A stretch of 20,498 nucleotides of DNA from IMG/VR virus record IMGVR_UViG_2877280126_000007; one strand, given 5' to 3'. The position numbers and the translations under genes are program-made. Shown one piece after another: positions 17,169-19,298 of the stretch. The first letter of the stretch is position 1. The number at the start of each line of letters is the position of its first letter. The DNA comes from a virus. Taxonomy: Duplodnaviria > Heunggongvirae > Uroviricota > Caudoviricetes. The notes under the pieces were generated by a model. The model did not search any database. It saw only the letters and a program-made list of their open reading frames with translations, and was not told where the DNA came from.

Positions 17169-17346
17169 AAAAAGAACAAATGGTAGTGTCCGCTATTGCC
17201 AGTACACCTCACTGTTAAAAATTTAATCCTTAACCGGAGGGATTTCTGCACCCTCAAATCATCAGGAGACCACCCGAAAGGGCGGGGAGCAGTCACACAT
17301 CTGTTTCCGATAGCCCCGTTCTAATGCTACACTCTTTGATATTTTT

Positions 17347-18033
17347 ATGACCCCAATAAACATATTTATGACAGTTGCTGATTTCAAACGGCCCAAATTG
17401 GAGCTCCCAAACGGGGCAAACAAACTACTACTGCACTCTTGCTGTGCTCCATGTTCCGGTGAGGTGATGGAGGCGCTTCAGGCCTCGGGAATCGACTACA
17501 CCATCTTTTTCTACAACCCGAACATTCATCCTCAGAAAGAGTATTTAATTCGTAAGGATGAGAATATTCGCTTTGCTGAACAACACGGCGTGCCGTTTAT
17601 TGATGCTGATTACGACACAGACAACTGGTTTGAACGAGCCAAAGGAATGGAATGGGAGCCCGAACGAGGGATCCGTTGCACCATGTGTTTTGACATGCGT
17701 TTTGAGCGGACAGCGCTGTACGCCGCTGAAAATGGTTTCAGTGTGATCAGCAGTTCACTGGGCATTTCACGCTGGAAAAATATGCAGCAGGTTAACGACT
17801 GTGGGCGGCGAGCCGTCGCGCATTATCCGGGCATGGTGTACTGGGATTATAACTGGCGCAAGCAGGGCGGCTCGTCCCGTATGATTGAAATCAGCAAGCG
17901 CGAAAAATTCTATCAGCAGGAATATTGTGGCTGTGTGTATTCTCTGCGCGATACCAATCTACACCGCAAATCTCAGGGACGCCCTCTTATCAAAATTGGT
18001 CAACTCCACTACGGTAAAGAAGAGAAGGAGTGA
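17347..18033 (+). CDS. DUF208 / QueH-like protein (putative epoxyqueuosine reductase-type Fe-S enzyme)
   Basis: 228-aa ORF with cysteine motifs I associate with DUF208/Que[12 protein letters not shown] near the N-terminus, RCTMCF mid-protein, YCGCVYS near the C-terminus. No obvious Shine-Dalgarno; start could be the Met at 17368. Confidence 0.6.
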
Positions 18034-18054
18034 TTTTATGGGGCACCTTTCTGA

Positions 18055-18084
18055 TTGATTTCATATTGGCGAGGTAAGTAGAAT
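18055..18084 (+). promoter_or_regulatory. Probable sigma-70 promoter of the hok mRNA
   Basis: TTGATT (18055-18060), 18-bp spacer, TAGAAT (18079-18084). Predicted start near 18091 (GGGTGCTTGAGGC), which resembles the 5' end of plasmid R1 hok mRNA as I recall it. Confidence 0.5.
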
Positions 18085-18139
18085 GACTGCGGGTGCTTGA
18101 GGCTATCTGCTTCAGGCATGAACACCAAAAGGCAGATAG

Positions 18140-18212
18140 AGAAAAGCCCCAGTTAACATTACGCGTCCGGCAAGACGCTTAACATTAATCTGAGGCCAAT
18201 TTCATGCTTTGC
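18140..18212 (-). ncRNA. Putative sok-like antisense RNA
   Basis: Minus-strand promoter-like hexamers TTGCCT (18247-18242) and TAACCT (18224-18219) would give an antisense transcript across the mok-like start/leader (ATG 18204), as in hok/sok loci. Ends not defined. Confidence 0.35.
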
Positions 18213-18260
18213 ACATGTAGGTTAGCCTCTTACATGCCGAAAGGCAAGGAGAAGCAGGCT

Positions 18261-18416
18261 ATGAAGCAGCAAAAGGCGATGTTAATCGCCCTGATCGTCA
18301 TCTGTTTAACCGTCATAGTGACGGCACTGGTAACGAGGAAAGACCTCTGTGAGGTACGAATCCGAACCGGCCAGACGGAGGTCGCTGTCTTCGTAGACTA
18401 CGAATCCAGGAAGTAA
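18261..18416 (+). CDS. hok: Hok/Gef-family type I toxin (HokD/RelF-like)
   Basis: 51-aa ORF MKQQKAMLIALIVICLTVIVTALVTRKDLCEVRIRTGQTEVAVFVDYESRK with one transmembrane helix. AAGGAG Shine-Dalgarno. An in-frame upstream ORF from ATG 18204 is mok-like. Confidence 0.85.
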   Translation: MKQQKAMLIALIVICLTVIVTALVTRKDLCEVRIRTGQTEVAVFVDYESRK

Positions 18417-18492
18417 GAGTGACCGGGCGGGGAGCTGATCCCATCCCCGCCCACCTCTGATGTGTCAGGCATCCTCAACGCACCCGCACTTA

Positions 18493-18537
18493 ACCCGCCC
18501 ATCGCTGTGATCTCTCAGCGTTTCGGCGGGTTTTTTG
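18493..18537 (+). terminator. Rho-independent terminator at the hok mRNA 3' end
   Basis: CCCGCC (18495-18500) / GGCGGG (18525-18530) with an internal CGCTG/CAGCG stem, followed by TTTTTTG. Preceded by a GC-rich hairpin (18424-18450) that could be the 3' fold-back element. Confidence 0.6.
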
Positions 18538-18665
18538 TTGTTTATTTCCGGTGAATTTGATTCGCGCACCTTCGCAGATAGAATCGACTCACTTAAGTAG
18601 CGCGCAGGGAGAAGAGGGATGGACCCCGAACAGGGGAGAGCTATTTATCTGGAAGGATTCTGAAG

Positions 18666-18953
18666 ATGAAAATCGAAGAATTGCGTGAAATTTTTAGTGA
18701 AAATGGCCTCTATGCTGTGCGCGTTGAGAATGGAGCGATTGTCAGCCATTGCCGCATTAGATGTTTGCAATCTCAACAAAGGAAGAGCGGTGCTGTGTTA
18801 TTTTATTTTTGTAATGGACTTCTGACGGACGGTTTTATTTTGCGTGAGGACGAATTTGTCACATCATTACGGGTTTTGAAAGAGATTGGTTTTAAGGCTG
18901 GTTTTCTGCTTTTGCTGAAGAATAAACTCATCTACAATCTTGAGCAGGATTGA
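18666..18953 (+). CDS. Hypothetical protein
   Basis: 95-aa ORF (MKIEELREIFSENGLYAVRVENGAIVSHCRIRCLQ…) with AGGA Shine-Dalgarno-like context. No recognisable family. Confidence 0.4.
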   Translation: MKIEELREIFSENGLYAVRVENGAIVSHCRIRCLQSQQRKSGAVLFYFCNGLLTDGFILREDEFVTSLRVLKEIGFKAGFLLLLKNKLIYNLEQD

Positions 18954-18991
18954 ACTCCTGCTGTGTAACACCGTGCCACCGGAGAAAGCCG

Positions 18992-19298
18992 ATGGCACAT
19001 ATACAACTGGTCAAACAAACCTCTTCCGGATTACTTCTCCCGGCGACGCCGGAGAGTTGCGATTTTCTGCATCAAATCAAAATAGGTGAGTGGATACACG
19101 CAGACTTTAAGCGTGTGTGTAACTACGCATTCCACAAGCGTTTTTTCAAACTCCTGCAACTGGGTTTCGATTACTGGACTCCGGTCGGTGGGGCGATCAC
19201 GCCTCGCGAACGAAAACTGGTGTCCGGTTTCGTTGATTACCTGTGTGAATCAGTAGGCCGGGAACATACGCCAGCTCTGAGCGAAGCCGCAGAGCAAT
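18992..19298 (+). pseudogene. Hypothetical prophage-type protein, 3'-truncated by IS600
   Basis: Frame starting MAHIQLVKQTSSGLLLPATPESCDFLHQIKIGEWIHADFKRVCNYAFHKRFFKLLQ… runs into the IS600 end at 19299 (…SEAAEQL then IS-derived codons). Confidence 0.45.

Follow-up and report, generated by a model that had tools for sequence, protein, structure and literature searches.

Here we examine a 2,087-bp segment carrying a queH gene and a hok/mok/sok locus, which lies between two inverted copies of the insertion sequence (IS) IS600 in a 20,498-nucleotide stretch of viral DNA (IMG/VR record IMGVR_UViG_2877280126_000007, Caudoviricetes; hereafter the window). The segment is very probably what survives of the early-right (nin-type) region of a Rac-like lambdoid prophage, now defective, in a chromosome of the Shigella sonnei type, and the IS600 copies around it would be scars of deletion and rearrangement rather than the ends of a transposon that imported it. 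In kind, the locus is ordinary genome decay, already known: the window adds another cryptic Shigella prophage that has decayed through IS activity, and its component genes are already named in RefSeq. It also illustrates hybrid IS copies clearly, since a split 3-bp duplication reveals exchange between IS600 elements.

Colinearity of the segment with uninterrupted prophages

The segment and the IS600 sequences around it are laid out below, with the orfB-proximal (right) terminal inverted repeat of IS600 abbreviated IRR and the opposite (left) one IRL; sequence coordinates with the prefix L002 refer to the reference prophage introduced after the list.

13693-14353, minus strand: IS600 fragment C', 661 bp, IS600 positions 712 to 52, cut short by the IS911-like element beside it
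14354-15617, minus strand: IS600 copy A, full copy; its IRR meets the IS600 fragment at GAA and its IRL meets the replication-gene fragment at GGT
15618-15893, plus strand: prophage replication-gene fragment, 276 bp, from the gene between ydaT and ydaV (replication-initiator position), equivalent to L002 6698-6973
15894-15947, plus strand: solo IS600 left end, 54 bp, IS600 positions 1-54; its last three bases, GAA, adjoin copy B
15948-17211, plus strand: IS600 copy B, full copy; left boundary of the "island", with no counterpart at the same site in relatives
17212-19298, plus strand: QueH segment, 2,087 bp between copies B and D, matching the early-right (nin-type) region of Rac-like lambdoid prophages
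18992-19298, plus strand: truncated DUF1367 (NinB/Orf-like) gene, codons 1-102 of about 199; the frame continues into IS600 and stops at 19345
19299-20498, minus strand: IS600 copy D, right boundary, cut by the end of the window
Junction 15893/15894, replication-gene fragment to solo IS600 left end: GCTGCC / TGAGGTAGCC
Junction 17211/17212, copy B to QueH segment: CACCTC / ACTGTTAAAA

Two Escherichia coli strains, FDAARGOS_944 (L002) and FDAARGOS_943 (L003), carry a Rac-like prophage that is free of IS elements at the segment. The segment aligns over its whole length (100% covered) to L002 9001-11087 with 99.9% identity and to L003 with 99.8% identity, and the L002 sequence is uninterrupted across both positions at which IS600 meets the segment in the window. 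The gene order in L002 is cI/Cro, YdaT, replication gene, ydaV, DUF977, orf118, QueH, hokD, the 95-aa open reading frame (ORF), DUF1367, DUF1364, DUF1133 (Q-like), four transfer RNA (tRNA) genes, holin, RrrD, Rz, DedA, terminase and portal. A further locus (L023) has the segment at 100% identity with DUF1367-YbcO-Q-holin intact, and the S. sonnei loci also carry it at 100% identity. The adjacency of QueH and hok is frequent in E. coli prophages and is found as well in phage HannyBb, between the replication genes and Q. Because the segment is uninterrupted in IS-free prophages, the linkage of QueH, hok/mok/sok, rem and DUF1367, in that order, appears to be older than IS600.

The closest known system is the early-right region of Rac/Qin-like lambdoid phages, as represented by hok-rem-DUF1367 (irsA/ydfU) of Escherichia phage Rac (MN652886.1) and by QueH-hok of HannyBb (PP925841.1). 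Gene order is shared, running through replication genes, QueH, hok/mok, rem, DUF1367, YbcO, the Q antiterminator, tRNAs and lysis genes. The block in the window differs in being truncated by IS600 on both sides, cut from the promoter region and inverted relative to the late genes, and in the company of a portal pseudogene: the portal (DUF1073) frame at 3558-5027 on the minus strand contains two in-frame stop codons, which argues that the prophage is defective and unable to make particles. When set against the IS-riddled cryptic prophages of Shigella, with their expansion of IS1, IS2, IS600 and IS911 and their deletions and inversions, the window shows essentially no difference. Its IS elements belong to several families and include nested insertions and hybrid copies that lack matching target duplications, and some of its phage genes are pseudogenes; it is a typical example with an extra deletion specific to its sub-lineage.

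IS600 copies and the history of their junctions

The full IS600 copies are 1,264 bp long, encode OrfA (100 aa) and OrfB (272 aa, 268/272 identical to the RefSeq "IS600 family transposase") and have intact terminal inverted repeats. Copies B and D are inverted with respect to each other and about 100% complementary across 1,200 nt. An original prediction, made from the window alone, had placed these two copies at 15948-17211 (plus) and 19299-20498 (minus) with their IRR ends pointing toward the 2,087-bp segment, and both the coordinates and the orientation proved exact. The gene content that it gave the segment was recovered as well, namely a DUF208/QueH protein of 228 aa, a complete hok-type locus, a 95-aa ORF and a gene cut by the IS600 end, the last of which encodes residues 1-102 of a DUF1367 protein. 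Its claim that neither copy has matching 3-bp flanks holds within the window for copy B (GAA versus ACT); for copy D the window is too short, and the mismatch (AAT versus GTT) is read only through relatives that are 100% identical. Full copy A, the 661-bp fragment, the 54-bp solo left end and the late genes on the opposite strand had been overlooked.

Copies A and B are identical across all 1,264 nt, consistent with their being recent products of one another, and the OrfA of copy D (20196-20498) has one Leu-to-Pro difference from those at 15251-15553 and 16012-16314. The solo left end at 15894-15947 is a direct repeat of 15948-16001, and copies A and B are separated by 330 bp with an IS600 left end on each side.

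The two boundaries of the segment have different distributions among relatives. An integrase fragment and then modCBA-acrZ-modEF-galETK lie beyond copy D in L004, L005, L007-L009, L011, L021 and L022, and the exact 117-aa product of the DUF1367::IS600 fusion is listed in 521 blocks of a public collection; loci with the fusion include S. sonnei 75/02 (CP019689) and Ss046 (CP000038), whose identities were confirmed. The site occupied by copy B in the window carries ydaV-DUF977-orf118 in L004, L005 and L007-L011, and in every locus read except CP000036.1 orf118 stands directly before QueH, without IS600. Relative to L004, the window has lost about 2 kb at this point (L004 6204-8218; ydaV, DUF977 and orf118). 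Since the right junction is common to many assemblies and the left IS600 is not, the right IS600/DUF1367 junction appears to be old and clonal, and the left one would be particular to the sub-lineage of the window, where it coincides with the loss of ydaV to orf118.

In CP000036.1 (L019), which we take to be Shigella boydii Sb227, QueH-hok at 5927-7455 is 99.0% identical to the equivalent of 17273-18787 in the window and remains between other IS elements, with the exact QueH protein also present. It adjoins an integrase and a gene, probably ttcA, whose product matches PF01171 (ATP_bind_3).

The short duplications at the ends of the copies record a more involved history on the left. The IRL junction of copy A is that of a simple IS600 insertion, with the GGT duplication seen in L004. 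In relatives from S. sonnei (L004 2281-2992), IS600 positions 51-1 follow fragment C' without a break, and the GAA duplication (IS600 positions 52-54) of a nested insertion of IS600 into IS600 is split in the window, one half lying between copy A and fragment C' and the other between the solo left end and copy B. As the halves of a single nested insertion are now found on two oppositely oriented copies, exchange between IS600 copies is required; non-matching flanks are what would be expected of copies B and D if they are recombinant. Three simple ways of deriving the window from an Ss046-type arrangement were considered and rejected, namely inversions only, deletions only and a single intramolecular transposition, each of which needs at least one extra adjacent-deletion step. 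No route from that arrangement dispenses with the nested insertion, and each also involves one or more exchanges between copies and one or more deletions adjoining an IS end.

In the course of events that we favour, IS600 would have entered DUF1367 early in the lineage, and this same copy would now join the segment to the integrase fragment beside modC. Later, in the sub-lineage of the window, a second IS600 end would have been joined to the prophage 135 bp upstream of queH, with the loss of the 2 kb described above, and exchange between local IS600 copies would have reshuffled their ends. The colinearity with IS-free prophages, the contrast between shared and strain-specific junctions, the split target duplication and the pseudogenised late genes are read directly from the DNA, and from them we infer the order of events.

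Several points weigh against this reconstruction. A window that stops within copy D is not enough to work out the complete order of rearrangements, and the junctions of an IRL with L002 position 6973 and of an IRR with L002 position 9001 each need a transposase-type event that has to be postulated. A look-up of two junction-spanning ORFs in public assemblies returned no match to the left arrangement, which is thus represented by one sequence only, although this is a weak test, such ORFs being seldom called. Both queH and hok are known here from sequence alone, and the IS-free prophages L002 and L003 are labelled E. coli rather than Shigella.

Alternative explanations

A composite transposon, in which the inverted IS600 pair would have mobilised QueH and hok/sok as a unit inserted from elsewhere, is extremely improbable, even though two inverted copies with intact terminal repeats flank the segment and compound transposons are, as general knowledge has it, possible in principle for IS3-family elements. 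IS-free prophages match the supposed cargo colinearly, at 99.9-100% identity, the left copy is missing in relatives that have the right junction, and the left outer flank belongs to the same prophage, about 2 kb upstream. The outer flanks, GAA (itself within an IS600 fragment) and GTT (taken from the 100%-identical relatives), form no target-site duplication, and no record of the unit with IS600 at both ends was found in the collections of E. coli genomes, phages and plasmids. We rejected the transposon on the unduplicated flanks, the colinearity with the surrounding prophage and the failure to find a second context. The view of the original prediction, that the segment is an IS-bounded cargo unit that had moved or been captured, fails on its own terms, the segment being a standard contiguous part of a prophage (L002, 99.9%; L023, 100%), and the search that it invited, for an IS600-bounded cassette in the same collections, disclosed no other context. 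Its appeal to IS600 recombination is sound to the extent that such recombination shaped the locus; the mobile unit itself falls away, with the left copy missing from relatives and the outer flanks unduplicated. A different concern is that the local arrangement of identical 1.26-kb IS600 copies, comprising A, B and the intervening 330 bp together with the absence of 2 kb, is in part an error of assembly or a flip-flop isomer present in the minority, with a true structure nearer to that of S. sonnei Ss046 or 75/02. Copies A and B, as 100% identical inverted repeats 330 bp apart, are prone to short-read misjoining, and no second assembly with the junction-specific ORFs was found. Against this, the junctions are base-precise IS ends that share a coherent split GAA duplication, and those joining the solo left end to L002 6973 and copy B to L002 9001 are novel, beyond what simple repeat collapse would give, and we consider an artefact quite unlikely.

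The remaining alternative concerns the meaning of the segment more than its origin. Instead of neutral debris it could be a selected, domesticated module, in which QueH would reduce epoxyqueuosine without cobalamin and hok/sok would penalise loss of the segment; we regard this as possible, if somewhat doubtful. The queH gene is intact, retains all family cysteines and bears the marks of strong purifying selection in phage, chromosomal and plasmid copies, the hok locus has every sequence element, and QueH-hok has likewise been left between other IS elements in CP000036.1. It is established that QueG is cobalamin-dependent, that E. coli lacks de novo synthesis of vitamin B12, and that tgt (vacC) influences the translation of VirF in Shigella. 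On the other side, the activities of QueH and hok are predicted from the DNA, the segment has been severed from the early promoter region of the prophage and a consensus scan found no promoter upstream of queH, two lineages are a small sample, and many other prophage fragments persist in Shigella without a selected function. Within the favoured reading, that of a remnant left by prophage decay, post-segregational killing by hok/sok, selection on QueH, or both, may have aided survival of the segment.

The queH gene

17347-18033, plus strand: queH, 228 aa (221 aa from the RefSeq start at 17368)

The 228-aa protein matches the Pfam family QueH (PF02677) essentially over its full length (profile positions 1-174 of 175) with an E-value of 1.9e-65 and 220.6 bits, the cut-off being 23.5. 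It is also similar to the QueH of Thermotoga maritima of known structure (7LC5; E 5.3e-22), on which 177 residues align, query residues 27-203 falling on chain residues 4-178. Cysteines 32, 33, 36, 111, 114, 194 and 196, in the motifs CCAPC, CxxC and CGC, are kept and aligned in seven diverse homologues. The CC...C, CxxC and CGC cysteines are conserved with respect to T. maritima, which differs in having CCAPD where all seven aligned homologues have CCAPC. A second difference is that QueH of the type found in the window is borne by phages, prophages and plasmids of Enterobacteriaceae, where its activity is predicted. The protein matches phrog_3217, a family of unknown function, and a search of NCBIfam returned no family for the QueH, Rem or DUF1367 proteins.

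Substitution patterns show that queH is under strong purifying selection across phage, chromosomal and plasmid copies: the ratio of nonsynonymous to synonymous substitution rates (dN/dS) is 0.08 in the comparison with the phage copy and 0.02 in that with a Klebsiella IncF plasmid copy. Among 5,426 complete E. coli genomes, 995 (18%) carry the gene, nearly always as one chromosomal copy with at least 95% identity, and it also occurs in 302 plasmid records, chiefly of Klebsiella and Escherichia. The Klebsiella plasmid records with the gene number 99, among them the Klebsiella pneumoniae IncFIB/IncFII conjugative plasmid NZ_CP071821.1 (L012), which carries a QueH copy of 92% aa identity at 6065-6733, in surroundings free of phage genes. 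The phage records that carry queH are HannyBb and a number of unverified contigs.

Upstream of queH, a promoter consensus scan found none. The first 160 bp of the segment contain a single difference from L002, a G-to-A change at 17262 (L002 9051), which disrupts a perfect CCGCCC-GAAA-GGGCGG hairpin.

E. coli, Shigella and Enterobacteriaceae in general normally carry queG. On the assumption that the host of this prophage does so too, the prophage queH would be an extra copy beside the queG of the host rather than a replacement for it, and QueH may serve as a cobalamin-independent epoxyqueuosine reductase alongside host QueG. By extension, the queH of enterobacterial lambdoid phages, prophages and plasmids might act as a conversion gene, freeing the final step in the synthesis of tRNA queuosine from its need for cobalamin in hosts that depend on B12 for QueG but are unable to make the vitamin. 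Its linkage to hok/sok could then account for its having outlived the rest of the prophage in Shigella, a host in which queuosine is known to influence the translation of virulence factors; we put this forward tentatively, as a proposal that may well prove wrong.

A survey of viral 7-deazaguanine genes reported no QueA, QueG or QueH homologues among the viruses analysed (PMC6884629). In the literature that could be searched, we found no discussion of QueH/DUF208 encoded by phages or prophages, including those of Shigella. An intact, constrained queH, borne on phages, prophages and plasmids of Enterobacteriaceae and present in 18% of complete E. coli genomes, raises the testable question of B12-independent queuosine maturation, which is not tied to the window. 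What QueH does on the mobile elements of enterobacteria is accordingly of modest interest, as a question that does not arise from this locus in particular.

The hok/mok/sok locus and the Rem-like ORF

18055-18084, plus strand: promoter-like site TTGATT-18-TAGAAT, placed for a start of the hok messenger RNA (mRNA) near 18091, where the Rfam model begins
18091-18537, plus strand: full-length hok mRNA, with a 5' translational activator (tac) element, mok at 18204-18416, hok at 18261-18416, a fold-back inhibition (fbi) element at 18473-18485 and a 3' stem-loop with a T run
18139-18212, minus strand: putative Sok antisense RNA, with a -35 element TTGCCT at 18247-18242 and a -10 element TAACCT at 18224-18219 (17-bp spacer), read by eye and positioned as expected
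18666-18953, plus strand: Rem-like ORF, 95 aa, with PF27490 (Rem) precomputed on the identical gene in relatives; phrog_340

Completeness of the hok-type locus is supported at the levels of protein, leader RNA and folding. Hok, of 51 aa, matches PF01848 (HOK_GEF) with an E-value of 9.8e-23 and phrog_251 with an E-value of 1.3e-32, and the overlapping mok ORF at 18204-18416 encodes 70 aa. The leader at 18091-18266 scores 117 bits on the hok-sense strand against Rfam RF01794, whose gathering score is 59; a match on that strand implies that the Rfam model describes the hok leader, Sok itself being antisense. In the minimum-free-energy fold of 18091-18540 (-191.5 kcal/mol, z -8.07) the first bases pair with 18473-18485, as a tac/fbi pairing. 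The candidate Sok promoter was absent from the output of a strict consensus scan and was identified by eye, by analogy with the plasmid R1 sok promoter.

The locus resembles the hok/mok/sok loci of plasmid R1 and of E. coli chromosomes and prophages in its 51-aa Hok, overlapping mok, leader RNA, tac/fbi pairing and 3' stem-loop. It differs from the plasmid R1 and chromosomal loci in lying within a prophage and in a Sok promoter assigned by eye, and its killing and antisense control are predicted.

The DUF1367 fragment downstream matches PF07105 with an E-value of 1.7e-46 over profile positions 1-101 of 198, and also phrog_319. The 95-aa ORF gave no hit in the local copy of Pfam, and neither did the 276-bp replication-gene fragment.

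The remainder of the prophage

420-1120: IS1, near the start of the window
1190-10453, minus strand: prophage late region, with head genes, portal pseudogene, terminase, probable DedA moron (plus strand), Rz, lysozyme, an IS2 insertion and holin
7337-7849, plus strand: DedA-family membrane protein gene, between the lysis and terminase genes and on the opposite strand; also in an intact prophage (WP_011069285.1 in L002)
8950-10280: IS2, between lysozyme and holin
10464-11900: IS110-family element, immediately upstream of the holin start
12440-13690: IS911-like element, abutting the IS600 fragment

The ORFs of the late region correspond to the annotation of L002. TerL, on the minus strand, is identical to the L002 copy at 466/467 positions, and the alignment of the holin with L002 extends as far as the IS110-family element. 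The gene for the DedA-family protein is likely a moron. The early and late regions lie in opposite orientations and are joined in the cluster of IS110-family, IS911-like and IS600 elements. A search of the window for tRNA genes found none, the tRNA cluster of the L002-type prophage having been lost.

The protein encoded by the replication-gene fragment is identical to that of L002 at 70/72 positions. At 15824-15831 the window counts eight consecutive A against six in L002, a 2-bp frameshift that yields an 87-aa ORF also called in S. sonnei relatives.

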